From assembly GCA_963701985.1 (NCBI GenBank), contig OY969691.1, positions 1,219,088-1,283,087 of the forward strand: a stretch of 64,000 nt of DNA, in the 5' to 3' direction. Position numbers and translations under genes: made by a program. This DNA is from an uncultured Coriobacteriia bacterium (GTDB lineage Bacteria > Actinomycetota > Coriobacteriia > Anaerosomatales > PALSA-660). Below the pieces are notes generated by a model that saw only the letters and a list, made by a program, of their open reading frames with translations, was not told the DNA's origin and ran no database searches. The stretch's first letter is position 1. Each line of letters opens with the position of its first letter. This document shows, in pieces, positions 3,498 through 47,665 of the stretch.

Positions 3498-3546
3498 CGA
3501 CCGTCACATCCGAGCCGAGCCGCCGGGCCCCGCGTCTCTCTTCGCG

Positions 3547-4014: not shown

Positions 4015-4032
4015 GCCGCCGACGCCTCCCCG

Positions 4033-6198
4033 CTAGCTCGCACCGGCCGACCTCGCCGCGGCCAGCAGCAGCGCCTCCTGCGCCTGTATCCGCGGCTCGC
4101 CCGGCGCGGGCTCGATCCGCGCGTACGTGCCGTCCGAGCGCATCTCGCGCGCCTTCACGTTGTCCGCCAAGTACGTCGCGAGCACCTCGTCGCGCAGCCG
4201 CCGGACGATCGCCGGGTCGCGCACGGGCGCGAGCACCTCCACGCGCCGGTCGAGGTTGCGCCGCATGAGATCGGCGCTGCCGATCAGCACCGTCGGGTCG
4301 CCACCGTTCTCGAAGTAGTAGATGCGCGAATGCTCCAGGAAACGTCCCACGATGCTCACCACGCGGATGTTGTCGCTCACCCCCGGAACGCCCGGCCTGA
4401 GGATGCACATGCCGCGCACGAGCAGGTCGATCCGCACTCCTGCCCGCGACGCCTCGTAGAGGCGGCGCGCCGTGAGCAGGTCGACGAGTGCGTTCATCTT
4501 GAGGATCATGTGCGCAGGACGCCCGGCGCGCGCGTGCTCGATCTCGCGCTCGATGTGCGCCTCCAGGCCGGACCGGATGGTCCCGGGCGCCACGAGGAAC
4601 CGCTCGTACGAGTGCTCGGTCGCGTACCCGGTGAGGTAGTTGAACAGCTCGGTGGCGTCCTCGCCCATCGCGGGCTCGACGGTGAACAGGTCGAGGTCCT
4701 CGTACTCCAGCGCGGTCACGACGTTGTAGTTGCCGGTCCCGACGTGCACATAGCGCGTGATGTGATCGCCTTCGCGGCGCACGAAGAGCGCGACCTTGGT
4801 GTGCGTCTTCAGGCCGAGCACACCGTAGACGACGTGGACGCCCGCCTGCTCGAGCTTCCGCGCCCATCCGATGTTGCTCTCCTCGTCGAAGCGCGCCTTG
4901 AGCTCGACGAGCGCCGCCACCTCCTTGCCGTTCTCGGCGGCGTCGAGGAGCGCCTCGACCACGGGAGAGTCGCGCCCGACCCGGTACAGCGTGATCTTGA
5001 TCGCCAGCACGTCCGGGTCCGCCGCGGCCTGCTGCACGAGGCGCACGAACGGTTCGAACGATTCGTACGGGCGGTGCAGCAGGATGTCGCGCTCGCGTAT
5101 GACCTCGAAGAGGTCGGGCTCTTCGGCGGCGTGCAGGTCCGGAGGCATGGCGGCATGGAACGGCGCGAATCTCAGGTCGGGGCGGTCGATCCCGTACAAC
5201 GCCATGAGCTGGCTCGCGCCGATCGGTGGGTCGAGCACCACGATGTCGTCGGCCTCGAGCCCCAGGTTCTCCACGAGCACGTCACGCAGGAAGTCGGGCA
5301 ACGAGGGCGTGACCGTGACGCGGACCACCGAGCCGAACCGCCGGCGCCGTACACCCTCCTCGATCGTCTCGAGCAGGTCGGGGGCCTCGAGTTCCTGGAT
5401 GGCGTACTCGGCGTCGCGCGTGACGCGGAACGGGTGGGCGGCGAGGACCTCCACCCCCGGGAACAACTCGCCGAGATGGGCCGTGATGAGCTGCTCCATC
5501 CACACGAAGTAGTACGAACGGTCCGTCGTCACGGTGCACAGGGCGCCGCTGTCTCCCGGCGCCGAGAGCGGCACCAGGCGCGGCAGTGAGCTCGGGACCT
5601 TGACGCGGGCGAAATGCGTCTCGCCGTCCGGCGTGCGGACGTGCACCGCGAGATTCATGCTCAGGTTGGAGATGTGTGGGAAGGGCCGCGCGGGGTCGAA
5701 CGCCAGCGGAGTGAGCACGGGGAAGACGTAGTCGCCGAAGTACGCGTCCGCGCAGCTCTTCTGCGTCTCGTCCAGCTCGTCGTAGTCGAGCAGCCACACC
5801 CCCGCCTCGCGGAGCAGCGGCTTCAGCCGTCCGTATGCGTCGCGCGTGCGCTTGAGGAGTCCGCGCGCGACGCGGCGGCATGTCTCGAGCTGCTGCGCCG
5901 GGGTCATCCCGTCCACGGACAGGTCGCTCACGCCGGCGGCGACCTGCTTCTTCAGCACGGCGATCCGCACCATGTAGAACTCGGCGATGTTCGAGCTCAA
6001 GATCGACAGGAACTTCACCCGCTCGAGCAGCGGATTGCTCTCGTCGTCGGCCTCTTCGAGGACCCTGTCCTGGAAGGCCAGCAAGCTGAGCTCGCGGTTG
6101 ACGTACAGGTCGCGCGAGAGCAGGTCGGGCGCCCGGTCCGCGCCCGGCTCGGAGGCTTCGTCATGCGCTCGCTCGCCGACCGCCGATGTCCGCGCCAT
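4033..6198 (-). CDS. ppk: polyphosphate kinase 1 (PPK1)
   Basis: 721 aa with YVNRELSLLAFQDRVLEEA, KTHTKVALFVRRE and RFLEHSRIYYFENGG. The start ATG shares one base with the ppx stop (TGATG at 6196-6200). Confidence 0.95.
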   Translation of the reverse strand: MARTSAVGERAHDEASEPGADRAPDLLSRDLYVNRELSLLAFQDRVLEEADDESNPLLERVKFLSILSSNIAEFYMVRIAVLKKQVAAGVSDLSVDGMTPAQQLETCRRVARGLLKRTRDAYGRLKPLLREAGVWLLDYDELDETQKSCADAYFGDYVFPVLTPLAFDPARPFPHISNLSMNLAVHVRTPDGETHFARVKVPSSLPRLVPLSAPGDSGALCTVTTDRSYYFVWMEQLITAHLGELFPGVEVLAAHPFRVTRDAEYAIQELEAPDLLETIEEGVRRRRFGSVVRVTVTPSLPDFLRDVLVENLGLEADDIVVLDPPIGASQLMALYGIDRPDLRFAPFHAAMPPDLHAAEEPDLFEVIRERDILLHRPYESFEPFVRLVQQAAADPDVLAIKITLYRVGRDSPVVEALLDAAENGKEVAALVELKARFDEESNIGWARKLEQAGVHVVYGVLGLKTHTKVALFVRREGDHITRYVHVGTGNYNVVTALEYEDLDLFTVEPAMGEDATELFNYLTGYATEHSYERFLVAPGTIRSGLEAHIEREIEHARAGRPAHMILKMNALVDLLTARRLYEASRAGVRIDLLVRGMCILRPGVPGVSDNIRVVSIVGRFLEHSRIYYFENGGDPTVLIGSADLMRRNLDRRVEVLAPVRDPAIVRRLRDEVLATYLADNVKAREMRSDGTYARIEPAPGEPRIQAQEALLLAAARSAGAS

Positions 6199-7730
6199 CA
6201 GGACCCGCCCTCCGTGTCGCTGTCGTTCTCCACCACGACCGTGCGCCCGAACGTCTCCTCGAACAGGTCACGCTTCTTGCGAACGCTGTAGAGCTCCGCC
6301 GTCAGGTCCGGGCCGCCGCGCAGGAGCAGCCGCGTGCTCGCCCCGTCATCGATCACGCGCACGCTCTCCACGCGCTCGCCGCCGCCGCGATCGAGCCCGT
6401 CGGCGATGCGCAGGAGCGACGCGAGCGCGCGGACCGCCGGGCGGTCCGCCGGCTCGATCGCCGACCACGACTCGTGCCGCGACTTCGGCAGCGCCTTCGT
6501 GTGGTACCGGGCGACGGACGCGACGATGCCGAGCTCCCGTCTCGTGAGCGGAGCGAGCGTCGAGTGGAGGATGAGGTGGTAGGAGTGCTCGTGGTGGCGG
6601 TCGTACGAGATGAAGTAGCCGATGTCGTGGAGCATCGCGGCCGCCTCGAGGAGCGGGCGGCACGCGGGATCCAAGTCCAACGTCTCCTCCAGCTGGTCGA
6701 ACAGCGAGAGGGCGAGCCTGGTCACCTGCTCCGCGTGCGCGCGGTCGTAGTCGTAGCGCGTCGCGAGGTCCCGCACCGCGCGCATCAGATCGGGCGTCGC
6801 ATCCGCCACGCCCTGCCGAGCGAGCGTGTCGATGACGATGCCTTCCCGGATGCCGCGCGCGTTGACGAGCACGCGCGGCGCGTCGAAGAGCGCCATCGCC
6901 TCGGCGAGCACGACCACCCCGGGCAGGATGATGTCGGCACGGTCGGCCGGCATGCCCGGCATCTTGAGGCGCTCGGCCGTCGTGCTCGCGCCGAGGACGA
7001 TCCGCAGCCGCATCACCTCTGACCGCTCGACCTCGACGCCGTGGAGTGACTCGTACCGGCGGCCCCGCATCCCGGCCACGAGCGCGGCGATGCTCGTCAC
7101 CGTGCCTCCCGAGCCGACCAGCGACGGCGGGCTCGCCTCGACCGGTACCACGCGTGCTCGCAACGTCCGTCGGACATGCCGCTTCAGCCGCTTGAACGAG
7201 TGCTCGGAGAGCGGGTCCTCCGTCTCGAAGCGCTCCGCGAGGACGCGGGCGCCGAGGCGCATGGACGAGACGGCCGCGGGCTCGCCGTCGAGGGCTTGCA
7301 CGACCTCGACCGACCCTCCACCGATGTCGATCACCGCCGAGAAGTGGGCGCCGCGCGTCTGAGCGCTGGCGCTCAACCAGACGAGCCGCCCCTCCTCCTC
7401 CGCCGACACGACCTCGATCTCCAGCCCGAGCTCCGCGCGCACCCGCTCGACGAAGCCGGCACCGTTCGAGGCGCGGCGCACGGCCTCCGTCGCGACCGCG
7501 CGCACCTCTTGGACGCCGAGGCGCGCGCCGATGTCCGCCACGGCCCTGAGGGCGGCGATCGTGCGTTCCGTCGCGGCGTCCGACAACGCGCCCGTCAGCT
7601 CGAGCCCTTCGCCGAGCCGCGTCATGTCGCGCTCCTCGTCGACGACCCGCCACGGGCCGCCGACCGGCACCTCCACCACGATGGACCGCACGGAGTTCGT
7701 GCCGATGTCGATGACCTGCAGCAGCCTCAC
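6198..7730 (-). CDS. ppx: Ppx/GppA-family exopolyphosphatase with C-terminal HD domain
   Basis: 510 aa. N-terminal ASKHA motif VIDIGTNSVR, DIGGGSVE, and HD region MLHDIGYFISYDRHHEHSYHLI. Confidence 0.9.
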   Translation of the reverse strand: MRLLQVIDIGTNSVRSIVVEVPVGGPWRVVDEERDMTRLGEGLELTGALSDAATERTIAALRAVADIGARLGVQEVRAVATEAVRRASNGAGFVERVRAELGLEIEVVSAEEEGRLVWLSASAQTRGAHFSAVIDIGGGSVEVVQALDGEPAAVSSMRLGARVLAERFETEDPLSEHSFKRLKRHVRRTLRARVVPVEASPPSLVGSGGTVTSIAALVAGMRGRRYESLHGVEVERSEVMRLRIVLGASTTAERLKMPGMPADRADIILPGVVVLAEAMALFDAPRVLVNARGIREGIVIDTLARQGVADATPDLMRAVRDLATRYDYDRAHAEQVTRLALSLFDQLEETLDLDPACRPLLEAAAMLHDIGYFISYDRHHEHSYHLILHSTLAPLTRRELGIVASVARYHTKALPKSRHESWSAIEPADRPAVRALASLLRIADGLDRGGGERVESVRVIDDGASTRLLLRGGPDLTAELYSVRKKRDLFEETFGRTVVVENDSDTEGGS

Positions 7731-8707
7731 ATGGCGCCCTTCAGCGCCGGCGTGAGCGGTGCGAGGAGCGCCTGCATCAGCATCCGCGGCTCGTGCTCGG
7801 CCGCCAGCGCGCGAAATCGCTCGTACTCGTCATGGGAACGCCGTTCCAACAGATCCGCCACCTCGTCGAGATCGTCGGCCGAGACGCCGGCGCGCAGCGC
7901 CTTCTCCCGCCGCTCCGGATCCCGCACGAGCTCGGTGAAGAGGTACAGGTCGTGCATCGTGCCCAAGGTGTCCTGGAACCCGGTGAGCGTGTCGTGCAGC
8001 TCGTCGAACGCCTCACCGTAGCACGGAGCGAACACCTCCACCGCGTAGCGCAGCCGCTTGTAGCAGATGCGGAGCGCGTGCTGCCGGAGCGGCCGCGCCT
8101 CGTCGAGTGCTTCCGGCTGCACGCTGAACGCGGCCTGCGCGCGCCGCTCGACCTCCGCGTGAGCGAACTCGGCGAGCGAGCGCTGGGCGGCCGCTCCGCT
8201 CTCGACCGCGCGCACGAGGCCGCCGAACGACGCCCGTCTCCGCGTCAGATCGAGACGGCCCAGTTCGCGGTCGAGCGTCTCGAGCTCCTGCTCCCGCTGC
8301 CCCATGCGATATCCGATGATGAACGCGACCGCGCGCTTCCCGCCGGCGCCGAGATCGCCGACCAGCGCCGCGAAGGAGTCGATGAAGACGTCCGCGTCCC
8401 TGACGGGCCCCAGCGCGCGCGTGATCCGCTTGACCCGCCGGTACCAGCGACGGAAGTCGCGAGCCGGGTAGACCGGCGCCAGCAGGCGCATCGCCTCTCG
8501 CAGGCGGCGCGACGCGACGCGCATGTCGTGCACGGCGTCCATGTCGGTGCCGGCGCGCGCCTTCGACTCGAGCCGGAAGAGCGGCTTCGCCTTGGCCAGG
8601 AGCAGCAACGGCGCGGCCTCGCCGACGGGCGTTCCGGCCGCCACGCCCGGCACCGCGAAGCGCTCGTCCATCGGTTCGGCCTCCGTTGGCGACAGTGTGC
8701 GCGACAC
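7727..8707 (-). CDS. CHAD-domain protein
   Basis: 326 aa, helical and Arg/His-rich, with the CHAD hallmark AVHDMRVASRRLREAMRLL and a second copy HALRICYKRLRYAVEVF. 4-nt ATGA overlap with the ppx start. Confidence 0.85.
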   Translation of the reverse strand: MSRTLSPTEAEPMDERFAVPGVAAGTPVGEAAPLLLLAKAKPLFRLESKARAGTDMDAVHDMRVASRRLREAMRLLAPVYPARDFRRWYRRVKRITRALGPVRDADVFIDSFAALVGDLGAGGKRAVAFIIGYRMGQREQELETLDRELGRLDLTRRRASFGGLVRAVESGAAAQRSLAEFAHAEVERRAQAAFSVQPEALDEARPLRQHALRICYKRLRYAVEVFAPCYGEAFDELHDTLTGFQDTLGTMHDLYLFTELVRDPERREKALRAGVSADDLDEVADLLERRSHDEYERFRALAAEHEPRMLMQALLAPLTPALKGAM

Positions 8708-8995
8708 GTCCCGGCGGCGGTCAGGCGCGCGACGGGCTCATCGCTCAATCTACCCAAGCATGCCACGCCGTGCGGGGCCACCGCTCGGAGCGTACCGCCG
8801 GCCGCGTGCGCGCGACGAAAGCGCTCGTATCTTTTCGGTTAACTCTCCGCGGCCTTGGCGCGACCCCCGCGCGTGCTCGAGCGGGAAGCGGCGTCGGGGG
8901 GCATCCCGAAGAGGCGCCGCTCCGCCGCGCGAGCACGGGTATGTACCGTTGCGCCATCCCGTCGGGCACGTCACACGCGAGGGAGGAACGCCGAA

Positions 8996-17154: not shown

Positions 17155-18364
17155 ATGGCACACGTGCGCTCGCTCTTCTTCAAAGGTCCGCTCGCGGACG
17201 TCGAGAACAAGGCCGTCACGGCCTTCAAGCTCGGACGTCCCAGCGACGTCATCTGGAACATCACCAACCGCTGCAACCTGCTCTGCGACCACTGCTACAT
17301 GGCCGCCGACGCTCACTCGCGTCCCGACGAGCTCACCGACGAGGAGGCGATCGCGCTCGTCGACCAGATGGGCGAGCGCGGGCTCCCGGCGCTGTTCCTC
17401 TCCGGCGGCGAGCCGATGATGCGCCGCAACTTCTGGGAGATCCTCGAGCGCGCGCGCAGCTATGGCATCCGCGTGACCGTCTCGACCAACTGCACGCTCA
17501 TGACGCGCGAAGCCGCGCGACGGCTGAAGGCGGATGGCGTCGACTGGATCGCCACCTCGCTGTACGGCCCCGACGAGTTCCACGACGCGATGGTCGGCGT
17601 GCCCGGCACGCGCCGACCGCGTGGTCGAGGCGATCAGGATCCTGCGCGAAGAGGGCGTCGGCGTCGCGATCAAGACCGCGATCAGCCAGGCCACGTGGCC
17701 GTACGTCTACGACCTCATCCAGGAGGCGCGCGACCTCGATTGCGGCCTCATCTACTTCTGCGACCTCATCACCGCCGGGCCGCAGCGAGGGCGAGGACGA
17801 CGGCCGCATCACTCCGGAGCAGTGGCGCGAACTGGCCGACTACATCATCGAGGACCTCGTCGCCGGCCAGCGCGACGGCGCGAAGGGGCTCGAGTGGGAC
17901 ATCGGCGCGATGCCGTCGCTTCATCCCATACGTGGCCGAGCGCTTCATGGAACGCGGCATCGACGTGAGCAACGGCCTCGAACGGCTGAAGACCATCTCC
18001 GCGTGTCCCGGTCGGCAAGGGGCACATGAACATCAACTCCGAGGGCGGCATCATGCCGTGCCAGTTCGCCCAGGACTGGACGATCGGCAGCGTGCGCGAG
18101 ATGACGCTGCAGGAGGCCGTCGGCGAGCTCTACAAACTCGACGTGCAGGAGTCCGAGGGCGTGTGCGCACCCGAGGCGTGCGAGTACTCGCGCATCTGTC
18201 GCGGATGCCGCGCGAAAGCGTGGCAGCGCACCGGCGACCCGATGGCGGAGGACGTGACCTGCCTGCTGCATGCCGGCGAGGACCGTTCCGCGCTCGCCCG
18301 GCGCATCGCCGCCACGCCCGAGTTCGCGCGCTCCGCGCCATGCTCGGCGCCCGGCAGCTGCTAG
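17155..18364 (+). pseudogene. radical SAM/SPASM-domain protein (AhbD/NirJ-like), frameshifted as assembled
   Basis: Fragments: WNITNRCNLLCDHCY (CxxxCxxC), FLSGGEPMMR, then in other frames ADRVVEAIRILREEGVGVAIKT, ITPEQWRELADYIIEDL, and the Cys-rich SPASM end CPVGKGHMNINSEGGIMPCQF...CRGCRAKAW. At least 3 frame changes between ~17.56 and 18.03 kb. Confidence 0.75.
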
Positions 18365-23274: not shown

Positions 23275-23967
23275 TCAGGAGCGCGGCCGGAGAAGCTCCC
23301 GCACCGAACCGTCGGGGGAGCCGAGCAGGAGGAAGTCCGCCGGGCGCAGCGCGAAGATGCCGCACGCGACCACGCCGGCGATCGAGTCGAGAGCGCTCTC
23401 CGCCGCGACCGGGTCCGAGAGATCGAGGCCGATGACGTCCAGCACCTCGTTACCGTTGTCCGTGAGCGCGCCCGGGCGGGGCGACGCCGACGCGCCGAGG
23501 TCCGCGATCGCGCGTTCGACGTACGCCTTGGCCATCGGCAGGACCTCGACCGGGACCGGATGCGACTCGCCGAGCTCTCGCACGAGCTTCTCCTCCGACG
23601 CGATGCAGACGAAGAGGTCGGCAGCGGATGCGAGCACCTTCTCCCGAGCGTGCGCTCCGCCGGCGCCCTTGATGAGCCGCAGGCGCACGTCCGCCTCGTC
23701 GGCGCCGTCGACGTAGACGGGCAGCCGGCCGGTCGCGGGAAGCTCGACGACCCGGATGCCCACCTCTCGCAGTCGGCGCGTCACCGCGACCGAACTGGCC
23801 ACGGCGGCCTTGGGCAGTCGGGCGGAGGCGGCCATGGCGTCCACGAACGTGGCCGTCGTCGAGCCCGTGCCGACACCGATGAGCGCGTCCGAGTCCACGA
23901 ACCGTAACGCGGCGTCGGCCGCGGCGACGCGACCTTCGCTCCCCGTGGTGACCTCCATCACGTCCAC
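23275..23967 (-). CDS. rpiA: ribose-5-phosphate isomerase A
   Basis: 230 aa with LIGVGTGSTTATFVDAM, VYVDGADE, LIKGAGGAHAREKVLA. Confidence 0.9.
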   Translation of the reverse strand: MDVMEVTTGSEGRVAAADAALRFVDSDALIGVGTGSTTATFVDAMAASARLPKAAVASSVAVTRRLREVGIRVVELPATGRLPVYVDGADEADVRLRLIKGAGGAHAREKVLASAADLFVCIASEEKLVRELGESHPVPVEVLPMAKAYVERAIADLGASASPRPGALTDNGNEVLDVIGLDLSDPVAAESALDSIAGVVACGIFALRPADFLLLGSPDGSVRELLRPRS

Positions 23968-24746
23968 TTCCCCCTTGACGGCGCCGGGTCCGCCGGCGAC
24001 CCGATCCGTTCGGGCCCGCCCGATCCGATCCCGTCCACGACTTCATTCCCGACGGCGGCCGGCACGGGTGTCGGCGACGTCTCGGCCGCGGCGCGACGTG
24101 AGGCGACTGCTCGCTCGACGGCGCGGCGTTCCGCCGCGAACCGTTCGCGCGCGGCCCTCACGGCCCCGACGCCGTCCGACGTGCCGCTCGCCGCAGGGCA
24201 CCCGGCGTCGAGGGGCGCGGGCGACGGCCGACGGGAGGGGCTCGTGAGATCCCACAGCTCACGGTCGCCCAACCGCTCGTTCACCGCACGGAGCGCCTCA
24301 AGGATGTGCGGCCGGAGCTCCTCGCTGACCGGCACGCCGCCGTCATCGATCGCGGACGCGGACGCGAGGCGGCCGGACTCGGGATTCGCGGGCGCGGACT
24401 GCTCGACCTCGTGGCCGGCTGCCCTCCCGCCCCGGTCGGCGACCGCCGTGGGCATGCCCGGGTCTTCCGCCGCCGCCGCGGACTCGTCGGAGATCCCGCG
24501 GGCGAGCGCGGCCAGACCGCTCGCCAGCTCCTGGAGCCTCTCCCGCTCGGCGCGCCCGCCGGCGTGCCCGACACGCGCGCTCGCCGCCCCCAAGGCGTCG
24601 AGCGCGGCCACCACGTCCGACCAGTCGGTCCGCGACGCGTGCCGATCGGCCTGCGGCCCGTGCACGCTCGCGGACACCGCCGCCTGTCGCGACGTCCGGG
24701 ACGCGCCGCGAGCCGGCGCGAGCTCGTGGCCGGCGCGAACGCTCAT
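23958..24746 (-). CDS. hypothetical Ala/Arg/Glu-rich protein
   Basis: Start ATG at 24746 forms an ATGA overlap with the msrB stop. The 3' end overlaps the rpiA start by 10 nt. No family recognised and composition is low-complexity. Coding status is supported mainly by operon geometry. Confidence 0.4.
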   Translation of the reverse strand: MSVRAGHELAPARGASRTSRQAAVSASVHGPQADRHASRTDWSDVVAALDALGAASARVGHAGGRAERERLQELASGLAALARGISDESAAAAEDPGMPTAVADRGGRAAGHEVEQSAPANPESGRLASASAIDDGGVPVSEELRPHILEALRAVNERLGDRELWDLTSPSRRPSPAPLDAGCPAASGTSDGVGAVRAARERFAAERRAVERAVASRRAAAETSPTPVPAAVGNEVVDGIGSGGPERIGSPADPAPSRGKWT

Positions 24747-25138
24747 CGAGGGTGGAACACCAACGCGGCGGAGTTCATGCAGTACCTCGTATGCAGTGGT
24801 GCGGGCCCGTCGTCGAACAGGTGGCCGAGGTGACCGCCGCACCGACGGCAGCGGACCTCGGTACGGGCCATGCCGAGGCTCGTGTCGGTCGCGGTCTCGG
24901 TCGCGTCATCGTCGATGGGTCGCGTGAACGAGGGCCATCCGGTGCCCGAGTCGAACTTGTCGGCGGCGTCGAACAGCGGCCGGTCGCACCCCGCGCACCG
25001 GTAGACGCCGTCCGCGTGGTTGTCCCAATACGCGTTGTGGAAGGGCGGCTCGGTCCCCACCCGTCGAAGCACCCGGAACGCGTCCGGGCTGAGGATGTGG
25101 CGCCACTCCTCGTCGGTGTGCTCGACCTCGTACGGCAT
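24743..25138 (-). CDS. msrB: peptide-methionine (R)-S-oxide reductase MsrB
   Basis: 131 aa with zinc CxxC pairs (YRCAGCDRPLF, RCRRCGGHLGHLF), GTGWPSF, and catalytic RYCMNSAAL. Confidence 0.95.
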   Translation of the reverse strand: MPYEVEHTDEEWRHILSPDAFRVLRRVGTEPPFHNAYWDNHADGVYRCAGCDRPLFDAADKFDSGTGWPSFTRPIDDDATETATDTSLGMARTEVRCRRCGGHLGHLFDDGPAPLHTRYCMNSAALVFHPR

Positions 25139-25195
25139 GCCTCGCCTCTCTCTCCGAGCGCCCGCCGCCAGCGGCGCGGGCCTCGATGGAACGCC

Positions 25196-25819
25196 CTACA
25201 GCATCGCGGCCGCACCGCGCGGCGTGGCGATGCGCCGCACCTCCTCCTGCGCGGACGCTGAGAGCCCCGTCCTCGGCAGGTCCCGCCGCATCTGCTCGAT
25301 GTCGCGGCATCCGCCCAGCCACCCGTTGACCCGGGCCGCGGCCGTCGAGTCGACGAAGGCGCGGTCCTCCGGGTACATGGCGCGGAACTCGGCCATGATG
25401 GAACGGCGCGAGCGCAGCGAGTACTTCTGGTGATAGTCCTCCGCGCGGTAGAACCGCTGAAGCGGTTCGATCGCGGTGTTCACGACGCCGACGCGCGCCG
25501 CGATCCGGTCACGCGCCCGTTCCGCGACGAGGCGCTCCTCGTCCGTCCGGAAGAACAGCGCCGACCGATACTGCCGCGAGTATGCGGCGCGTCGCGGGTC
25601 GTGACTGAGCCAGAAGACGTCCACGAGGTCCTCGTAGGCGATCGTGGAGGGATCGAAGTCGATCTCGAGCGATTCCGTGTGATCGCCGAGGCGATGGTAG
25701 GTCGGGTCGGCCGTCGTCCCGCCCGCGTACCCCACGCGCGTGCGCACGACGCCGTCCATGCACCCGAACTGGGCGTCCGGTCCCCAGAATCAACCGAGGG
25801 CGAACGTGGCGGTGCGCAC
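25196..25819 (-). CDS. msrA: peptide-methionine (S)-S-oxide reductase MsrA with in-frame TGA at the catalytic position (candidate selenocysteine; start uncertain)
   Basis: The frame reads V(GTG 25819)RTATFALG-TGA(25790-25792)-FWGPDAQFGCMDGVVRTRVGYAGG...FWLSHDP...QYRSALFF...EDYHQKY. The ORF track begins only at Met 25759, downstream of the motif. Confidence 0.75.
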
Positions 25820-25943
25820 CTCGAGTGTGCGGCTCCAGGTCGAGCTCCGGCAACGCTCGCGGCTCGGCCGGCGTGCGATCGAACAACGGCATGGGCGACC
25901 TCCTCGGACAGCCGGTTCCTACCCATCCGGGAGCACGGCGATG

Positions 25944-27193
25944 TCAGCGGCTCGGCCGGCCGTCGTCCAGCTCGTTCGCGAGCATCTCCAGGAACAGGCC
26001 CACGTCGGTCACGACGCCGATCGTCTGGAACGAGCCCCGGTCGGCGAGCTTCGTCACGACCGCCGGGTTGATGTCGACGCACACGGTCGTCGTCGCGGCG
26101 GGCAGCATGTTGCCGGTCGCGATCGAGTGCAGCATCGTCGAGAACATGAGGCAGGCGCCCGCGTCGCGGCAGTACGCGCGCATCGCGGCCTGCGCCTCGA
26201 GCGCGTCGGTGATCACGCCGGGCATGGGCCCGTCGTCGCGGATCGATCCGGCGAGCACGTACGGCGTCCCGGTCTTCACGAGCGTGTACATGAGCCCCTC
26301 GGTGAGCACGCCCGTCCTCCACCGCCGCCTCGAAGCCGCCGGCGGCTCGGATGCGGTTGATCGCGCGGAGGTGGTGCTCGTGCCCGCCGGGCACGATCGT
26401 CCCGTCGTCGAGCCGCACGCCGAGCGAGGTGCCGAACAGGGCCGCTTCGAGCGTCGTGCGTGGCGACGGCGTTCCCGCCGAAGCATGACGGTCAGGTAGC
26501 CCATCTCGAACAGCCGCGCGAGGTGCGGCCGCCGCGCCGGTGTGCACGACGGCCGGCCCGACGACGGCGATCGCGGAGCGGCCCGTCCTCCCTGCATGCG
26601 TCGCAGCAGCTTCGCGACCTCGCACGACGATCTGCGCCTTCGGCTTCTCGCTGACGAGACCGCGGAGTTCATGAACTCGAACGCCGCCTTCTCGCGCGGG
26701 CGCTCGACCGGGATGACGCGCAGTCCCGCGTGTCCCACGAGCGAGCAGGTCGCCCGCGCGCACGTCGTTGATCGCGACGAGCTCGGCCGCACGGCTGGCC
26801 GTGTCGACGCGGATCCCGAGATCCATCTCGGCGCCGTCCACCGCGGCCCAACGGCCGCCGAGCCGCACCCACGTCTCCATGTTGGTGGTCGAGTAGAAGC
26901 CCTCGGGGAAGACGCCGTCGGCGGGCGCGGGCTCGACGTCCGCGTCGTCCTGCTGGAGCGGGACGGCGCCATGCTCCTGCACCGCCGGTCACTATGCGGT
27001 CGAGCGTCGCCTGGTCCGGCCCGATCACCCGGATGACCGCTCGCGAGACATCCTCGTTCGTCCGGCCGACGTCGAACGACAGCGTCTCGAACTCTCCACC
27101 GAGCTCGATGATGTCGTCCATGATGCGGCTGACTATCTGCGAGTCGATGAGGTGGCCCTCGACGACGACGTCCTCGTAGTAGCGAGCGGGCAT
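25944..27193 (-). pseudogene. LOR/SDH-type (TIGR00300-family) protein, frameshifted as assembled
   Basis: N-terminus MPARYYEDVVVEGHLIDSQIVSRIMDDIIELGGEFE (ATG 27193). The middle lies in other frames (FPEGFYSTTNMETWVRLGGRW, LFGTSLGVRLDDGTIVPGGHEHHLRAINRIRAAGG). The C-terminal ~115 aa are intact (YVLAGSIRDDGPMPGVITD...MLHSIATGNMLP...VDINPAVVTKLADRGS). Confidence 0.7.
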
Positions 27194-27403
27194 GCGGATC
27201 CCTTCGGTGTGGCGTGTCCGGGGCGGCGGCGCGGTACGTCGTCTATACGGTCGTCCGCGCATCCTATGCGTCCCGTATGATAGCCGTCCGCCGTGCGCGA
27301 GAGACCCGCGCGTGGGACCCCGCCCCGCAGGAGGGACGCGGCCATGGCCGCGGTGGCGCGCGCACGTGCGTCGCGAGGGAAGAGCGGTGGCCGCGGTGGC
27401 GCG

Positions 27404-28724: not shown

Positions 28725-30092
28725 GGCACGTCTCCTTCTTCTTCGGTCACTCGCGCGGCCCGACGGGAGGCGGCGGCGCGCTGCCCTCGGCGGGGCACGG
28801 CTCGCCCTCGCCGAAGAGCAGCTCGCGCTCGTCGGGCTTCAGGCGCCGCGCGCGCCTGGTCGCGCACGTTGTTCACGCCGATGAAGAACTCCCGCATCAT
28901 CGCGACCATGCAGGTAGCTGCCCGCGCTCGGTGAGCGTGAGCGACCTCCGGCGTCGTCGCGGTCGAACGCGCCCGCCGCGCGCATGAACGCCATCTCGAT
29001 CGCAGCCCCCGGTCGATCTGACGCCGAAGTCGCGCTCGAAACGGCCTCTTGTCGAGCTTCAGGCCGAACAGCTCCATGAGGAACCGGTACCGCATGCGCT
29101 CGTGCGATGCCGAACGCCTTCCTGCCCGCGACGCTCATCCGGCCGGCGCCCAGCCGCTCGCCGTACTCGCGCAGCGAGAACGTGTTCACGTACAGCGTGC
29201 CGTCGAGGAACGAGAACGCGCCGCGAGCCGATCCCGACGTACTCCTCGTAGTCGACGATGTACTCGTCGATCATGCCGCCCGCCGATGCGCGAGAACGTC
29301 CACGCGCTGCCGTTCTCGAACGTGTCGGACAGCTCCTCCGAGAGGATGCGGTAGAACTGGGCCTCGCGCTCGTAGTCGACCGGGCCGACCGTGCGCGCGA
29401 GCTCGCGCGAGACGACGGGCGAGGCCATGAGCGGGTAGAACGTGGTCTGGTTGCAGCCGCTGCTCCTTCAGCAGCTCGACGTCGCGGCGCAGCATCGCTC
29501 GCGTCTGCTCGGGAAGTTGAAGATCATGTCGACGTTCATCGAGTGGAACGCGCCGGCGGTCGCCTGGATGCGCTCGAGGATCTCCGCGCCGGAGCCGTAC
29601 TTGTCGTAGCGGTCCATCTGCCTGCAGCAGCCCGTCGTCGAAGCTCTGGACGCCGACGCTGAAGCCGCTGCACGCGCGGCGCGAGCGCCTCGACGTACTC
29701 GGGCGTCAGGTGGTTCGGGTTGGTCTCCGAGGAGACCTCGCGGATGGAGAAGAGCTCGCGCGCCAGGTCGATCGTGTCGGCGAGCTCGTCGAGCATGATC
29801 GTCGGCGTGCCGCCGCCGACGTACATGGACGCGAAGTCGTAGCCGAGGTCGGCGACCATGCGCATCTCTTCGCGCAGACGCTCGAAGTACGGGACGGCGC
29901 GCTCCTCCGTGAACGGGAAGCGGTTGAACGAGCAGTACGGGCAGAGCCGCTGGCAGAACGGCACGTGCACGTAGAGCAGGTACTCCCGGCCCGGCCGGGG
30001 CCCGGCAGCCGCGGCACGTCGGCATGCTCGAGGGCGAGGTAGCGCGAGTTCAGCGTCCGGACGACCGGGGTGAGGAGCCGCTCAGCGAGCAC
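28721..30092 (-). pseudogene. HemN/HemW-like radical SAM protein (coproporphyrinogen-III-oxidase family), frameshifted as assembled
   Basis: Fragments: LLYVHVPFCQRLCPYCSFNRF (CxxxCxxC), MYVGGGTPTIM, SSETNPNHLTPEYVEAL, then MDRYDKYGSGAEILERI, MNVDMIFNFP, MIDEYIVDYEEYVGIGS and MRYRFLMELFGLKLDK in other frames. Confidence 0.75.
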
Positions 30093-31406
30093 CTAGCACT
30101 CCGCCGTGTCCGGCTGCGCGTCGAGCGCCCGCGACGCGATGTCGCTGCGGTAGAACATGCCGTCGAAGCTGATCTTGCCCGCACGCCTCGTACGCGCGCT
30201 CGCGTGCTTGCGCGAAGCGTGGGCGCGACCGCGGTGACGTCGAGCACGCGGCCGCCGGCGGTGACGAGCGTGCCGTCGTCGCGCAGCGCCGTGCCGGCGT
30301 GGAAGACCGTGACGCCCGGCGACGCTCTCGGCGTCGGCGATGCCGCTGATCGGCTTGCCTTTCTCGTAGTCGCCCGGGTAGCCGCCGGACGCGAGCACGA
30401 CGCAGACCGCCACGTCGTCGCGCCCACTCGAGCTCCGTGCCCTCGAGCGTCGCCGTCCGCGACCGCGAGCATGCACGTCGAGCGAGGTCGGTGTCGAGCC
30501 GCGGCAGGAGCACCTGGGTCTCCGGGTCGCCGAAGCGCGCGTTGTACTCGAGCACCTTCGGGCCGTCGCTCGGTGAGGATGAACCCGCCGTAGAGGACGC
30601 CGCGGTAACCGAGGCCCTCCGCGTGCAGCCCCGCGACGGTCCGCTCCAGGATGTCGACCATCTCGCGTGCGTCGTCGACGTCGCACGCCGGGCACCGGAG
30701 AGTACACGCCCATGCCGCCGGTGTTCGGGCCCGGTGTCGCCGTCGAGCGCGCGCTTGTGGTCCTGCGCGGGCACCATCGGCATGACGGTCGCGCCGTCGA
30801 CGAACGCGAGGAGCGAGCACTCCGGCCCTCGACAGGAACTCCTCGATGACGACGCGTCTCGCCGGCCTCGCCGAACCGGCCGTCGAAGCACTCCTCGACG
30901 GCGCGCTCCGCGCCTCGCGCGAGTCTGTCGCGACGGTCACGCCCTTGCCCGCCGCGAGGCCGTCGGCCTTGACCACGATCGGGCACGGCTCGCGACTCGA
31001 CGTACGTCGAGCGCCGCGTGACTCCGTCGGCTGGAAGGCGTGCGAATCGGCGGTCGGGATGCGTGGCGGCGCATGACGCCCTTCGCGAACGCCTTGCTGC
31101 CCTCGAGCCGCGCCGCGAGCGCGCTCGGTCCGAACACCTTGACGTCGCGCGCGTGCAGCGCGTCGGCGACGCCGGCCACCAGCGGCCCCTCGGGCCCGAC
31201 GACGACGAGGTCGATGCCGTTCGCAGCCGCGAAGTCGGCCACCGCTCGCGGCGTCCTCGATGTCGAGCTCGGGACGTTGGTCGCGATGGCGGCGGTGCCG
31301 CCGTTGCCGGGCGCGACGAGGATTTCGGGTCGAGCGCGCCGAGCGTCGCGAGCGCCCACACGATCGCGTGCTCGCGGCCGCCGCCGCCGAGAACGAGGAT
31401 GCGCAT
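30093..31406 (-). pseudogene. purD: phosphoribosylamine-glycine ligase PurD, multiply frameshifted as assembled
   Basis: Fragments: MRILVLGGGGREHAIVWALA (ATG 31406 after GGAGGGG), PEILVAPGNGGTA, LVVVGPEGPLVAGVADAL, SKAFAKGVM, NTGGMGVYSPVP, VVLASGGYPGDYEKGKPI, MFYRSDIASRAL. The frame alternates many times, but total length is a multiple of 3. Confidence 0.9.
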
Positions 31407-31470
31407 CGCCGACCCCTCCGATGCGACGGCGGCGTCCCGCAGACCCGCCCGCCGACGGCGCATGCCGGCT

Positions 31471-32841
<1,371 letters not shown>

Positions 32842-33016
32842 TCATCGCCGCCGCTCCCGGACCGGGTGCGAAGGCCTCGCCGGCCCCGCACGCGCGCGCA
32901 CGACCGCCACGGGCCGCGCCTGGCACAGTATGACGGACGCTCCCCGACGATGCCACCCGAAGGCGCTCCGGTCCGCTGCAGCGCGAAAGCGGCACCGCCG
33001 CCGGAACCGGCCGCGG

Positions 33017-33658
33017 TCAGGCCGCCGTTCGGCCCGCCCAGCCCATGACGGCGAGCATCGCGTCGACGATCGCTGCGTCGTCGTCGGGCATCCCGAGCAC
33101 CTTGGCGGTGGCGAAGTAGCCGACGAGCAGCGACGTGAAGGCGCGCACCGCGCTCTCCAGCTGCTCCGGAGACCTCGTGATGCCGAAGAAGGCGTCGACG
33201 CGCGGCACGAACGCGCGGATGGATGCGACCATCGGCCGCGCCAAGTGGTCGCGGAACGTGTCGAGCAGCGCCTGGTTGTGCGGGGCGGACGCGAGGAGGA
33301 TCCCCATCATGCCCCCCGTCCCGGCACGTTGCGGCTGCGGACCGCCGCGCGCGACGAGGGCCGTCAGCGCCGCGTGGAGCGTCTCCGGCCGGACGTCCGC
33401 CATGCGGCTCGCCGCGACCTCGACGATGTGGTCTCCCGCCAGGCCGAGCAGGTCGGCGTAGAGCGCCTCCTTGCCGGCGTAGTGGCGATAGAGAGCGGGC
33501 TCGGTCACGCCCGAGGCGCGCCGCGATCTCGCTCATGGTGCCGCCTGCGTAGCCCTTCTCGCAGAAGACCGCGAGCGCCGCGTCGAGGATCGTCCCGCGC
33601 CGTCCCGCCACGAAATCGGCGAAGTACGGCGACGCGGGCGGCGCGACCCGCCCATCAT
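33017..33658 (-). pseudogene. TetR-family transcriptional regulator, frameshifted as assembled
   Basis: The HTH region ILDAALAVFCEKGYAGGTMSEIAARLGVTEPALYRHYAGKEALY is split over two frames. The C-terminal 163 aa are intact. The ATG at 33658 overlaps the stop of the ATPase gene. Confidence 0.7.
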
Positions 33659-34649
33659 GCCCGCCCCCCCTGCTCGCCGACGAGGTGCACGAACGCGTCC
33701 TCGAGCGTCGGCTCGACGCGTTCGACACCGTGGACCACGAATCCCGCCGCGCCGAGGACGGCCGGAAGGTCGGCCTCCTCCGCGCTCAGGTGGCCGATGT
33801 TCACCTGGAGCATCGCGCCCTGCATGTACGCCTCGGCCACGACGCGGGTTGTCCCTGCAGCGCCGCGAGAGCGCCCTCGCCGTCATCCACGTCGAGCCGC
33901 AGGATCGTGTCCTTCTCGAGGCCCGACCTTGATCTCCTGCGGGGTGCCGTCGGCGATGATGTCGCCCCGGTAGATGAACGCGAGGCGGTTGCAGTGCGTC
34001 GCCTCGTCCATGTAGTGCGTGGTCACGAACAGCGTCACGCCGGCGTTGGCGAGGTCGTAGAGCAGCTCCCAGAACTGCCGGCGGGCGTTCGGGTCCACGC
34101 CTGAGGTGGGCTCGTCGAGGAAGATGAGCTTGGGCTCGTGGAGCGTCGCGCAGCCGAGCGCGAGGCGCTGCTTCCAGCCGACCGACAGGTTCTCGGTGAG
34201 TTCGCGCTCGCGGCCCTCGAGGTCGGCCATCTTGAGGATGTAGGCGCGGCGCTCGGCGAACTTCTCGGCGGTCAGCCCGTAGACACCGGAGTAGAAGCGC
34301 AGGTTCTCGTCGACGGTCAGGTCCTGGAACAGCGAGAACTTCTGCGACATGTAGCCGATGTTGCAGCGGACACTGCTCGGGGTCCCGGCGCGATGTCGTA
34401 GCCCATGACCGTCGCGGTCCCGGCGGTGGGCTCGATCGTGCCGCACAGCATGCGGATCGTGGTCGTCTTCCCCGAGCCGTTCGGGCCGAGGAACCCGAAG
34501 ATCTCGCCCGCTTGCCGACCATGAGGTCGATCGAGTCGACCGCCACGAAGTCGCCGAACATCTTGCGCAGCTTGCTGACGACGATGGCGTCGTCGCACGG
34601 GCGCGATCAGCTCGGGTGCCTGGTTCTTTCTGTCCAGGGGAGATGCCAT
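33655..34649 (-). pseudogene. ABC transporter ATP-binding protein (ABC-2/YbhF-like half), frameshifted as assembled
   Basis: Fragments: Walker [29 protein letters not shown], signature LSVGWKQRLAL, Walker B LIFLDEPTSGVDP, H-loop VTTHYMDEA. ATG at 34649. Confidence 0.85.
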
Positions 34650-34668
34650 CGGTGCCTGCCTTCGAAGA

Positions 34669-35811
34669 TTAGTCGGCGAGGCGCTTCTGGAAGCGCGACA
34701 GGCGCGAACGATGAAGATGGCGAGGGAGAATACCGCCATCGCGGCGAACTGCGGCCACAGCGCGCCGAAGCCGGACCCCTTGAGGAAGTTCGAGCGCACG
34801 ATGACGAGGATGTAGCGCAGCGGGATGAGGAAGGTGAGCGCGTACAGCCACGTCGGCAACGACGCCAGCGGGAACATGAAGCCGGACAGCATCATCTGCG
34901 GCATCTGGAGGAACGACGACGATCTGCTGCGCCTGCTGCCGGGTGCGCGAGATCAGCGACAGCAGCATGCCGACGCCCAGCGAGCAGAGCATGAAGAGCA
35001 GCAGGCCCGCGCCGATGACGAGCAGCGACCCGTTGAACGGCACCTGGAACCACAGGACGCCGACGATGAACACGAGCGATGACCTGCATCGTCCCCAGCA
35101 GGAAGTAGGGCGACGAGCTTGCCGAGCAGGTAGTCGGTGCGCCCGATGGGCGTCACGAACAGCTGCTCGAGCGTGCCGCGCTCGCGTTCCTTCACGATCG
35201 CCTGGCTCATGAGGTTCGTGGTCGACATCAGCAGGATGAACGCGAGCAGGGCCGGCACCATCGTGTTCACGGCGCGCAGCGTCGGGTTGTACAGCACCCG
35301 TGTCCGCGCGTCGATCCCCACCGCCGGCGAGGCGCCGGGCGCTATCGCGCCGCTGCGCCGTAGAACTCGGAGCTCAGGCTCTGGACGATCTCGGCCCCGT
35401 AGCCTGAGGCCAGCTGGCCCACCTGGCTGTCGGAGCCGTCGACGATGATGCCCAACTGCGACGGCTTGCGCTCCTCGACGAGCTTCCCAAAACCCTTCGG
35501 GATGATGATCGCCGTCGACCGCGGTGTTGCCGTCCACCGCGTTCTCCATGCGCCTGCTCGTCTGGCTGGCCGCGTCACGACGGTGAAGTAGCCCGGAGTC
35601 GACGAACGCCTGCGACCACGACGCGCGATTGCACGGTGTGGTCCTGGTCGAGCACCGCGAGGTCGATGTTGCGCACGCTGGAGCCGACCACGTAGCCGAA
35701 CAGCAGCAGCTGGATGATCGGCATGATGAACAGGATGGGCAGCATCGAGCGGTCGCGCCGAGCTGCGATGAACTCCTTCCAGATGAGAAGGCGGATGCGT
35801 CGCCACGACAT
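34669..35811 (-). pseudogene. ABC-2 type permease (YbhR/YbhS-like), frameshifted as assembled
   Basis: Fragments: [89 protein letters not shown], and the end SRFQKRLAD*. Confidence 0.8.
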
Positions 35812-35816
35812 GCGCG

Positions 35817-36960
35817 TCACGCCCTCTCTCGGTAGGTGGCCGCCGCGAGCGACCACGATGGCGACCGCGAAGACGGCGAGAGCCGCGAACTGGGGCCAGA
35901 GGATCGCGAACGAGCCGCCCTTCAGGAAGATCGTGCGCGTGATCACCATGAAGTAGCGCGTCGGGAACAGGTACGAGATCGCCTGCAGCGCCAAGCGGCA
36001 GGTTGGCTGATCGGGAAGATGAAGCCGGACAGCATGAACGCCGGGAAGGATCGCGAGCAGCGCCGACGAGCTGGTTGGCGGTCTCCACCGACGATGCGCG
36101 GGCGGAGACGATGAGTCCCAGGCCGAGCGTGCAGACGACGTAGAGCAGGCTGCCGAGCGCGAACAGCACCACGGACCCGCGGAACGGGATCTGGAAGGCG
36201 AGGATCCCGATCACCGAGATGATGACGACCTCGAGCGCGCCGATGATGCGCCCACGGCGCGATCTTGCCGACCATCAGCTCGATCCTGCGGATCGGGGAC
36301 ACGACGAGCTGCTCGTAGGTGCCGTTCTCCTTCTCGCGCACGAGCGTGTAGCGCGGTCTGCTGGATGGTCACCATCGTCAGCAGGATGACGATGAGCCCC
36401 GGGACGAAGTAGTTGGCCGACTTGTCCTCGGGGTTGTACCAGCGTGCGGATCGACGCGGTGATGCCCGAGAGGAGTGAGGTGTTCGCGCCCTTCGCCTCG
36501 AGCCTCGCTCAGGGCGACGCGGCCGCCGAAGACGCCGCGACAGCGCCGCGGCGTAGCCCTGCGCGACCTGTGCGGTGTTCGGGTCGGAGCCGTCGATCAG
36601 CACCTGGACCGCCCCGAGCCGTCCCGCGGCGATGTCGCTGCCGAAGCGTCGGCGAGAGCACCACGACGACCTCGGCCTGGTTCTGCGAGAACACGTTGTT
36701 CAACCTGGGTCATCGACGTCAGGTTCTCGGTCGACCTGTGAAGTAGTTCGACTGCTGCAGGGCCGCCACGTACTGCCGGCTGTAGGACGAGTTGTCCTGG
36801 TCGAGGACGGCGGTCGGGATGTTCTTCACGTTGAACGACAGCGCGTAGGAGAAGAGGAAGAGCTGGATGAGCGGCATCAGCAGGATCGATGGCGAGGAGC
36901 CGCGCGGTCGCGCATGATGTGGATGAACTCCTTGCGCGCGATGGCGAGAATGCGGTTCAT
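35817..36960 (-). pseudogene. ABC-2 type permease (YbhS/YbhR-like), frameshifted as assembled
   Basis: Fragments: MNRILAIARKEFIHIMRD, LLMPLIQLFLFSYALSF, REKENGTYEQLVVSPI, MLSGFIFPI, YLFPTRYFMVITRTIFLKG. The likely end AATYRERA-TGA (35817) needs a further frame change. Confidence 0.8.
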
Positions 36961-46447: not shown

Positions 46448-47395
46448 TCAGGCGAGCGGAGCACCTGCCAGCGGCCGAGCCCCGCCACGCGGCAGCTTCC
46501 TCAGGTTGAAGAAGATGTCGATCAGGCCGAGCAGGGACACGAGCGGGATGAAGAGTTCGGTCGCCAGGAGCAGCGTGTACCCCAACCCCTTCATGAACCG
46601 CCCCGCGTTCGCACGCCGATACAGTGCGGCGAAGTCGCCGAGCCCTTGGGCCACGAGCACGGGCCGGACGAACAACAGGATGTCGAGCCCGATCGTGCCG
46701 AGCAGCGGCATCTTCGCGAACGACCCGCCCGCGAGCGCCGCGATCCCAGCGATCGCCGGCCACACGAAATGGAAGCTGACGTCGATCTGCGCGAGCGGCG
46801 GATACCGCCGGACGTCCACGGCCAGCGAACGCGCCGCCCTCGATGCGAGCGGCACCACGATGAGCGCGGTCAGGCCCATCAGGTAGTAGGCGATCCACGG
46901 CCACGCCTGCCGGTACAGCATGACCGTTGCGCTGATCTGCCGTGTCTGGGTGGTCGACGCCCCGGTCGCGATGAGCCCGCTCTTCACGAACGCGGGCACC
47001 GACGCGATCATCGCGGACAGTGTCGCCGCGCCGGTCGGCGACGCGACGAACACCGCGGTCAGCGCGAGCGCGACTCCGAGGAGCACGCCGAGCGCCGGGA
47101 ACCGCCGCAACGCTGAGGCCGTGGCCGGGCCGACGATGGCGAGCGCCAACACCACGAAGATCGCGTCGAGGGGGTCTGCGAGCCCGAGGAACTGGCCGAA
47201 TGCACCGACGAGAGCGGCCGCGACGAGCGCGGTCGCCACCCCGGCCGGCAGGCCGAAACGGTACGTGATCCAGCACAGCGCGAAGGCGGCCAGCGGCAGG
47301 CCCAGGAAGGGCAGACCGGGCGTGAGGAACCCGCCCGCGACGGTCGCCAGACTGAGCAATATCAGGTTTCGGACGTCGGCTCCGGAGGTTCGCAC
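46448..47395 (-). CDS. polytopic membrane protein (DUF2232/YybS-like by position)
   Basis: About 8 hydrophobic segments. GTG at 47395 lies 2 nt after the rpsR stop. The ORF track fuses it to frameshifted rpsR. It has the same position as yybS in Firmicutes rpsR-rplI clusters. Confidence 0.55.
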
Positions 47396-47397
47396 GG

Positions 47398-47665
47398 CTA
47401 GCCTCTGCGCCCCCGGCCTTCGACCTTCGTGCTGATGACAGGGACCGTGTACGGCAGCAGCGCCATCTCGCGAGCGCGCTTGATCGCCACCGACATCGAG
47501 TGCTGGTGCTGCGCGCAGTTGCCCGGTCACGCGGCGCGGCTTGATCTTGCCGCGGTCGGTCATGAACTTGCGCAGGCCCTGGACGTCCTTGTAGTCGATG
47601 TACTCGGTGTGATCCTTGCAGAACTGGCAGTACTTCCGCTTCGGCTTGCGGGTGTATTCACTCAT
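47398..47665 (-). pseudogene. rpsR: 30S ribosomal protein S18, single +1 frameshift as assembled
   Basis: [48 protein letters not shown], then after removing one C from the CCC run at 47522-47524: [28 protein letters not shown]...*. Length is 268 nt. Confidence 0.9.

Follow-up and report, generated by a model that had tools for sequence, protein, structure and literature searches.

A TGA-interrupted msrA gene as a probable selenoprotein gene of an environmental Coriobacteriia genome

Background

The 64-kb window considered here (the whole stretch of DNA analysed, part of contig OY969691.1) carries on its minus strand a gene for MsrA, the A-type methionine-S-sulfoxide reductase, in which a TGA codon stands exactly where enzymes of this family have their catalytic cysteine (Cys). 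Such a codon may be read as selenocysteine (Sec) with the help of a downstream hairpin, the Sec insertion sequence (SECIS), or it may reflect a wrong base call, a broken gene, or some other decoding of UGA, and the question is which of these applies. According to the analysis below, the locus is very probably the 5' part of a selenoprotein MsrA gene from an environmental genome of Coriobacteriia (Actinomycetota). A preliminary description of the window had interpreted the gene as encoding an MsrA selenoprotein and the hairpin as its SECIS, and this proposal is now supported by conservation of the TGA, the stem recovered by RNAalifold, covariation, codon constraint, the published criteria for bacterial SECIS (bSECIS) elements, and a match to CoMsrA, the MsrA of Clostridium oremlandii.

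Catalytic codon and family membership

Read on the minus strand from position 25819, the sequence runs GTG CGC ACC GCC ACG TTC GCC CTC GGT TGA TTC TGG GGA CCG GAC GCC CAG TTC GGG TGC ATG GAC, which translates as V-R-T-A-T-F-A-L-G-*-F-W-G-P-D-A-Q-F-G-C-M-D and then stays open as far as the TAG at 25198..25196. The active-site motif G-TGA-F-W-G occupies 25795..25781 and corresponds to the family motif G-C/U-F-W-G, which stands where helix 1 has its N-terminus. When the stop is replaced by Cys, the product has a match to PMSR (PF01625) in Pfam with an E-value of 2.7e-38 over profile positions 1–147 of 153, and scores 116.1 bits with TIGR00401 (msrA), whose cut-off is 108.1. The PMSR match begins at profile position 1, and the in-frame TGA (25792..25790) does fall in the column of the nucleophilic Cys of GCFWG, as had been described. 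The intact form of the gene has 231 codons with the putative Sec at residue 34; an extra G at 25822, discussed below, lengthens the window copy by one base.

Among solved structures, the best matches to the product are 4U66, 7C13, and 4LWJ–4LWM (E-value ~1e-50, 43% identity over 198 columns, residues 23–219), whereas classical MsrA structures score only ~1e-25. Entries 4U66, 4LWJ, 4LWK, and 4LWM represent CoMsrA from Clostridium (Alkaliphilus) oremlandii OhILAs, a selenoprotein that in nature carries Sec at its catalytic site and lacks Cys altogether, is recycled by glutaredoxin, and is 20-fold more active in its Sec form than in its Cys form (PMC4479559).

Conservation of the TGA codon

Homologues were taken from one genome per species, and the best 80 loci, which are 44–64% identical, were compared. 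The catalytic column holds TGA in 75 of them and TGT or TGC in the remaining 5; Cys homologues with TGT or TGC where the window has TGA are L004, L042, L078, L088, and P0002. Carriers of TGA span Chloroflexota, deltaproteobacterial lineages, Planctomycetota, Synergistota, Firmicutes, and Acidobacteriota. Within Actinomycetota, TGA-type msrA genes are present in metagenome-assembled genomes (MAGs) of Coriobacteriia (L034, L064), Thermoleophilia (L059), and Gaiellales (L007, L049).

The closest relatives, L081 and L082, are contigs from separate sequencing runs (ERR11593882, ERR10755942) that were found via an exact MsrB protein match and that share 99.5–99.9% identity with the window. The 44 substitutions between them and the window (31 synonymous, 13 non-synonymous) mark them as another strain of the same population, and both have TGA at the same site. 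The codon is also present in the syntenic orthologue L086/L087 (ArgZ-like, msrA, msrB, rpiA; 76% amino acid identity), in which the 33 codons preceding it carry many synonymous changes. An alignment with MsrA homologues had been proposed earlier as a check, and according to the one made here the TGA (Sec) is conserved at the strain, species, and cross-phylum level, with hairpin pairs that covary. On this comparison, the TGA is real and under selection, and its presence at this site goes far beyond chance.

Downstream hairpin

The hairpin described earlier at 25780..25756 exists: it spans positions 10–34, counted in nucleotides (nt) from the first base after the UGA, and, with −9.6 kcal/mol, is the minimum free energy (MFE) structure of this stretch of 25 nt. 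Its upper stem and loop are borne out by comparison, and its lower stem (positions 10–12 with 32–34) is not conserved. In a gap-free alignment of the TGA and the following 45 nt from the 75 TGA-bearing genes (Sec forms), RNAalifold finds a single helix that pairs positions 15–19 with 25–29 and closes a loop N-G-U-U-Y. Pair 15–29 occurs as CG, UA, and UG (42, 10, and 8 sequences, respectively) and pair 16–28 as UA, GC, and GU (37, 16, and 6). A 7-bp version of the helix is 82% paired, versus 26–57% with its 3' partner slid by 1–3 columns, and the observed covariation was reached by none of 500 shuffles. Counted over the same 75 sequences, the lower stem is paired in only 31–41% of family members and was rejected as a family feature, being lineage-specific at best.

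The codons beneath the helix are constrained as well. Codon 6 after the UGA is UCC or GCC in 73 of the 75 Sec forms; codon 7 has G as its third base in all of them (CGG in 40 and CAG in 33; never CAA, CGC, or AGR); and codon 9 is GGG in 73, whereas for Gly at codons −1, 3, and 13 all four synonyms are in use. Serine is always encoded by UCC at codon 6 and always by AGY at codon 10, a choice that makes the U16–A28 pair. All 75 sequences have G at loop position 2, and U-U comes after it.

A metagenome scan contributed 75 further Cys forms; its search pattern, TFALGCFW, favours Cys, so that this set serves as a Cys control only and gives no Sec/Cys ratios. The core CCC-NGUUY-GGG is found in 72 of 78 distinct Sec forms versus 8 of 60 distinct Cys forms (Fisher p = 1.6e-22, a value inflated by relatedness). 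For the 5-bp stem, energies average −5.7 kcal/mol among Sec forms; among Cys forms the averages are +3.8 in the genome set and −1.1 in the metagenome set. Two orthologues show the same at single codons: ACC as codon 6 of the Sec form L086 turns G16.U28 into A16–U28, and GGA as codon 9 of the Cys form L088 breaks C17–G27. Synonymous sites are frozen in Sec forms only, and the hairpin is tied specifically to the TGA-bearing genes.

Metagenome loci of the L093/L094 type comprise two TGA-bearing msrA genes with GAG as codon 7 and GGA as codon 9, and without the CCC-NGUUY-GGG core. Their downstream 28 nt still fold at −7.5 kcal/mol or lower, and they may carry a variant SECIS.

The published bSECIS model describes an apical loop of 3–9 nt on an upper stem of 4–16 bp, a G at loop position 1 or 2 that is usually followed by G or U, a UGA-to-loop distance of 16–37 nt, and an MFE of at most −7.5 kcal/mol; in most known elements the first and last loop bases also show a pairing pattern (PMC13188914). 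The window element falls within all four published criteria: a loop AGUUC of 5 nt on a stem of 5 bp, G-U at loop positions 2–3 (21–22 nt after the UGA), a UGA-to-loop spacing of 19 nt, and −9.6 kcal/mol for positions 10–34. In the genome set the MFE threshold is passed by 73 of 75 Sec forms versus 1 of 5 Cys forms.

Proposed decoding and the points against it

The codon, its conservation, the covarying hairpin, and the membership of the gene in the MsrA family can all be read from the aligned sequences; from these we infer decoding that depends on SelB and tRNA-Sec, selenium in the protein, and the reductant. According to this scheme, translation would begin at ATG 25892, and codon 34, the UGA, would be read as Sec when SelB with Sec-tRNA(Sec) binds the mRNA hairpin 15–29 nt downstream. 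The predicted recoding element consists of a 5-bp G+C stem and a loop A-G-U-U-C, whose G-U lies 21–22 nt past the UGA. In the enzyme, Sec in place of the nucleophilic Cys of GCFWG would attack methionine-S-sulfoxide and be converted to a selenenic acid, which a thiol reductant would presumably recycle, as in the C. oremlandii enzyme.

Several observations weigh against this reading. The reading frame of the window copy is shifted 30 nt upstream of the TGA and, if this is real, the gene of this strain would be broken or would need an alternative start. No selA, selB, or selD was found in the 64-kb window by a Pfam scan of 30 window open reading frames (ORFs), and no tRNA-Sec was found in it by ARAGORN or by Rfam at gathering thresholds. 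The sole match to the window in the latter search is a tRNA-Gly, on which ARAGORN agrees, with no match to a SECIS family. When 25745–25795 (51 nt) is folded, the MFE structure is a different fold that does no better than shuffles (z = −0.17), and in a 63-nt context the pair probability of the proposed stem is ~0.02. The first and last bases of the window loop (A and C) are unpaired, unlike those of most known bSECIS elements. Finally, selenium at the UGA position has been demonstrated for the homologue CoMsrA only (PMC4479559), and is extended to the window protein by inference.

As for the folding results, single-sequence folding was set aside as evidence either way in a genome with 70% G+C. 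The support for the hairpin comes from comparison, which is decisive.

Start codon and the extra base

The preliminary description started translation at GTG 25819. This is not borne out, since the GTG is an internal Val codon and the start is ATG 25892, which is preceded by GAGGAGG. In L081 and L082 the ATG is followed by 33 codons (MPLFDRTPAEPRALPELDLEPHTQVRTATFALG) up to the TGA, and such a 33-codon leader is uninterrupted in all five related sequences. The MPLFD N-terminus is conserved also in the Cys-form proteins P0002 and P0004. A GGAGG-type motif precedes the ATG in 3 of 4 related sequences, with AAGGAG in L088/L089. The GTG was rejected as a start because it has no well-spaced Shine-Dalgarno sequence and because the leader from the ATG is open in relatives.

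In the window copy the ATG is thrown out of frame by the extra G at 25822, which stands 30 nt upstream of the TGA. Two earlier statements about sequence quality were therefore mistaken: that the nearest indel was more than 450 nt away, and that the site lay outside the error-dense blocks. The TGA is situated within a variant-dense tract, 25739–26297. Sites at which the window and L081 differ are clustered in this tract and in 17228–18250, and the intervening 7.5 kb are identical. Of the 6 indels relative to L081, 5 are one-base insertions in the window, and the remaining one is a deletion of a single base at 26297, the extreme end of L081; relative to L083, both indels (2/2) are one-base insertions in the window. 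Such insertions break a radical-SAM/SPASM gene (18010, 17918, 17780, and 17616), rpsR (47521), and ssb (48027); independent contigs have all three genes intact, rpsR and ssb in L083. The clustered variants look like a consensus problem at places where strains differ, for example in a MAG built from long reads.

The extra G is most likely an assembly artefact and not biology, given that similar insertions break rpsR and ssb and that the base is absent from relatives. The opposite view, that the G is real and the Sec-MsrA is either inactivated or expressed only from GTG 25819 with 9 residues before Sec, is improbable. It gains something from the context of the base, which extends no homopolymer (TC[G]AGG) and is in this respect less typical of indel errors, and from the lack of any other indel over the 4.86 kb that the window and L082 have in common; a start at the GTG would, moreover, keep the whole first beta-strand (TATFALG) before Sec. 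On the other hand, like single-base insertions disrupt the essential rpsR and ssb, and four more are found in one radical-SAM gene, a load not carried by real genomes. The uninterrupted leader of the five related sequences also speaks against it, as does the spacing of the ribosome-binding sites: GAGGAGG lies 6 nt from ATG 25892, and GTG 25819 has no such site at a suitable distance.

The three tracts 17228–18250, 25739–26297, and 47521–48177 contain mostly synonymous substitutions beside one-base window insertions. In the last of these, a frameshift in the gene for ribosomal protein S18 (rpsR) joins it artificially to the gene for a DUF2232 membrane protein that lies downstream, and ssb is split in two (46448–47665, 47658–48209).

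Other decodings of UGA and sequencing error

Another possibility is that the UGA is decoded in some way other than as Sec (as Trp or Gly under genetic codes 4 or 25, by near-cognate read-through, or by a Cys-tRNA), or that it is a true stop and the product is the 187-residue protein starting at Met 25759. This is scarcely credible. Public pipelines do call the 187-residue ORF (P0001), Trp is printed at the Sec column in 18 of the 120 best database homologues, and the Sec machinery was not seen in the 64-kb window. However, among the 45 window ORFs with high third-position G+C, TGA is the stop of 24, TAG of 21, and TAA of none; with TGA serving as an ordinary stop, an alternative genetic code is excluded. 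The 187-residue product, for its part, would have neither the catalytic residue nor the first beta-strand of the PMSR domain. A constrained, covarying hairpin specific to TGA-bearing genes is predicted by SECIS-dependent recoding alone, and the characterised homologue CoMsrA contains Sec.

The remaining explanation, that the TGA is a miscall of TGC or TGT or a private nonsense mutation in what is an msrA pseudogene or an ordinary Cys enzyme, can be dismissed: although assembly errors are demonstrable in the window (one-base insertions in rpsR, ssb, the radical-SAM gene, and msrA itself) and the TGA lies within a variant-dense tract, against independent contigs the errors of the window take the form of insertions, the substitutions reflect strain differences and are for the most part synonymous, the codons flanking the TGA on both sides are under purifying selection, and the same TGA in L081/L082, in L086/L087, and in 75 of 80 homologues effectively excludes it. 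The caution voiced earlier about a TGC-to-TGA miscall or a nonsense mutation is thereby answered by independent assemblies, an orthologue, and homologues, and a selenoprotein MsrA remains the preferred reading.

Gene layout and host

The features of the locus are collected in Table 1.

Table 1. Coordinates of the msrA locus within the 64-kb window
Feature	Position	Strand	Basis
Full msrA coding region (probable selenoprotein MsrA)	25196..25892	-	PMSR and TIGR00401 matches; intact ORF in L081/L082; same layout in L086–L089
Shine-Dalgarno sequence GAGGAGG	25899..25905	-	6 nt upstream of ATG; read from sequence
True start codon ATG	25890..25892	-	ORF of L081/L082; N-terminus M-[PA]-L-F-[DN] conserved in Sec and Cys orthologues, P0002/P0004
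Extra G (CACACTC[G]AGGTG), shifts the frame between ATG and Sec codon	25822	-	Absent from L081, L082, L086, L087, L088, and L089
Predicted UGA Sec codon, catalytic position of G-U-FWG	25790..25792	-	TGA in the same column of 75/80 genome homologues
Full hairpin as described earlier, including lower stem (10–12 with 32–34) and 2x2 internal loop	25756..25780	-	−9.6 kcal/mol
Putative SECIS core: 5-bp stem (15–19 with 25–29 after UGA), pentaloop AGUUC 25770..25766	25761..25775	-	RNAalifold, covariation, codon constraint
Internal Met codon, false start in gene calls	25757..25759	-	187-residue product (ORF 25196..25759) without catalytic residue; P0001, calls on L081/L082/L086
msrA stop codon TAG	25196..25198	-	Read from sequence
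msrB (Cys-type MsrB/SelR)	24743..25138	-	TIGR00357, E-value 2.3e-53; 57 nt downstream of msrA

The genes msrA and msrB are probably co-transcribed. The order ArgZ-like gene, msrA, msrB, (hypothetical), rpiA is common to the window (23275–27262), the Sec-form L086 (3539–7420), and the Cys-form L088 (214–2649). The ArgZ-like (LOR-SDH) gene upstream of msrA (25944–27262, minus strand) is broken in the window into the overlapping ORFs 26669–27262 and 25944–26972, and its C-terminal domain profile is partly missing; L086 and L088 each have an unbroken orthologue of 407 residues.

As for the host, the DnaB protein encoded in the window is 81% identical to a protein of a 'Coriobacteriia bacterium' and 64–65% identical to proteins of Anaerosomatales and of an 'Actinobacteria bacterium' MAG. 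The earlier placement in Actinomycetota was correct, and the DnaB homologues indicate the class Coriobacteriia.

Other content of the window

A search of the window for a second selenoprotein gene, defined by an in-frame TGA flanked by coding sequence with high third-position G+C, returned only gene junctions and one frameshifted spot. The region 28800–36750 has normal G+C and no long clean ORF, and is apparently the densest frameshift block of the window; its fragments, in shifting frames, resemble genes for a HemW-like radical-SAM protein, purD, purA, a TetR regulator, and ABC transporters. As a source of Sec genes, 28.8–36.7 kb was rejected, since it consists of frameshifted hemW-like, purD, purA, and ABC-transporter genes.

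Elsewhere, a polyphosphate cluster at 2655–8737 (minus strand) encodes PPK2, a four-domain PPK1, a Ppx/GppA that also has an HD domain, and a protein with a CHAD domain. At 55948–57898 (plus strand) there are two adjacent WYL/WCX-domain regulators, one of them with a PafC-type helix-turn-helix, which resemble the actinobacterial PafB/PafC pair.

Exchange between Sec and Cys

Tentatively, and with a little less than even confidence, Sec may be the majority and possibly the ancestral state of this MsrA subfamily, the Cys forms having arisen through repeated conversion of Sec to Cys that left 'fossil' hairpins. Two sets of counts bear on this idea. The first concerns the Sec majority: of the 80 nearest genome homologues, 75 carry TGA; they come from more than 10 phyla and have one core, CCC-NGUUY-GGG, in common. 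The second concerns the fossils: the core is kept in 8 of 60 Cys forms, and the syntenic Cys form L088 is one base off it. The gene order conserved among the window, the Sec-form L086, and the Cys-form L088 shows that Sec and Cys have been exchanged in place within one syntenic locus. If Sec is indeed the majority state, the window would document this lineage in Actinomycetota, in Coriobacteriia, alongside relatives from Thermoleophilia and Gaiellales.

Annotation

According to the 120 best database homologues, this type of gene is systematically misannotated in public protein sets: 62 are full-length Cys proteins, approximately 36 are truncated just past the UGA, and 18 have Trp at the Sec column. 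The gene calls that print Trp (GWFWG) come from public metagenomes and include P0006, P0008, P0011, and 15 others; the residue presumably arises from TGA translated with genetic code 4. For the window gene, the public 187-residue fragment without a catalytic residue is corrected to a selenoenzyme of 231 residues, on the reading preferred here, and about half of the homologues closest to it in the database suffer likewise, being truncated or showing W at the Sec site. The core CCC-NGUUY-GGG, strictly conserved among Sec forms and mostly lost from Cys forms, provides a simple testable signature both for finding and annotating Sec-MsrA genes and for studying the interconversion of Sec and Cys. 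A further implication is that UGA is read as Sec in this environmental lineage of Coriobacteriia, and the finding would extend Sec-MsrA to MAGs of Actinomycetota; the understanding of selenoprotein or MsrA function is unchanged by it.

Comparison with known systems

MsrA with a 'GUFWG/H' motif is among the experimentally verified prokaryotic selenoproteins (PMC13188914), MsrA appears in the selenoproteome of Syntrophobacter fumaroxidans (Zhang et al. 2006), and reviews state that MsrA selenoproteins occur in prokaryotes and eukaryotes. Since Sec-MsrA (GUFWG) is already an established family, the window gene would be a further member of it, from a Coriobacteriia MAG. The preliminary description was aware of no Sec-MsrA in Actinomycetota. 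This holds for the literature, where no report of Sec-MsrA in Actinomycetota and nothing relevant on selenoproteins in Coriobacteriia was found; it does not hold for sequence data, given that TGA-type genes are already present, unannotated, in public Actinomycetota MAGs.

The closest characterised system is CoMsrA, which shares with the window protein the active-site stretch FALG-U/C-FWGPDAQFG and a C-terminal helical extension. The two differ in several respects. CoMsrA has no Cys (1-Cys/1-Sec type), whereas the window protein has Cys44, 10 residues past Sec, and Cys195; only 6 of the 75 Sec forms have Cys as residue 44. The N-terminal leader comprises 4–5 residues in CoMsrA versus 23 in the window protein, and the hosts are a Firmicute and a member of the high-G+C Coriobacteriia, respectively.

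Closest in genomic context are the Cys-type genes of L088/L089 and P0002, which are syntenic (ArgZ-like, msrA, msrB) and 65% identical, encode 231 residues with the MPLFD N-terminus, and have the same active-site motif except for the catalytic residue. They differ from the window gene by TGC in place of TGA and by a degraded hairpin core (GGA at codon 9).

The selenoprotein MsrA of Chlamydomonas reinhardtii, likened here by description, also has Sec at the catalytic position of MsrA. Its recoding, however, relies on a eukaryotic SECIS in the 3' untranslated region, which is of an unrelated type (PMC13188914).

As for the recoding element itself, the window hairpin resembles bSECIS elements of the Escherichia coli fdhF type in being a stem-loop within the coding sequence, just 3' of the UGA, with a small apical loop and G-U at its positions 2–3. 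Counted from the U of UGA, this G-U occupies positions 24–25, and the essential bases of the fdhF element are presumably G23 and U24 in the same numbering. What sets the window family apart from the bSECIS consensus is its core CCC-NGUUY-GGG, laid over the codons for D-[A/S]-[Q/R]-F-G.

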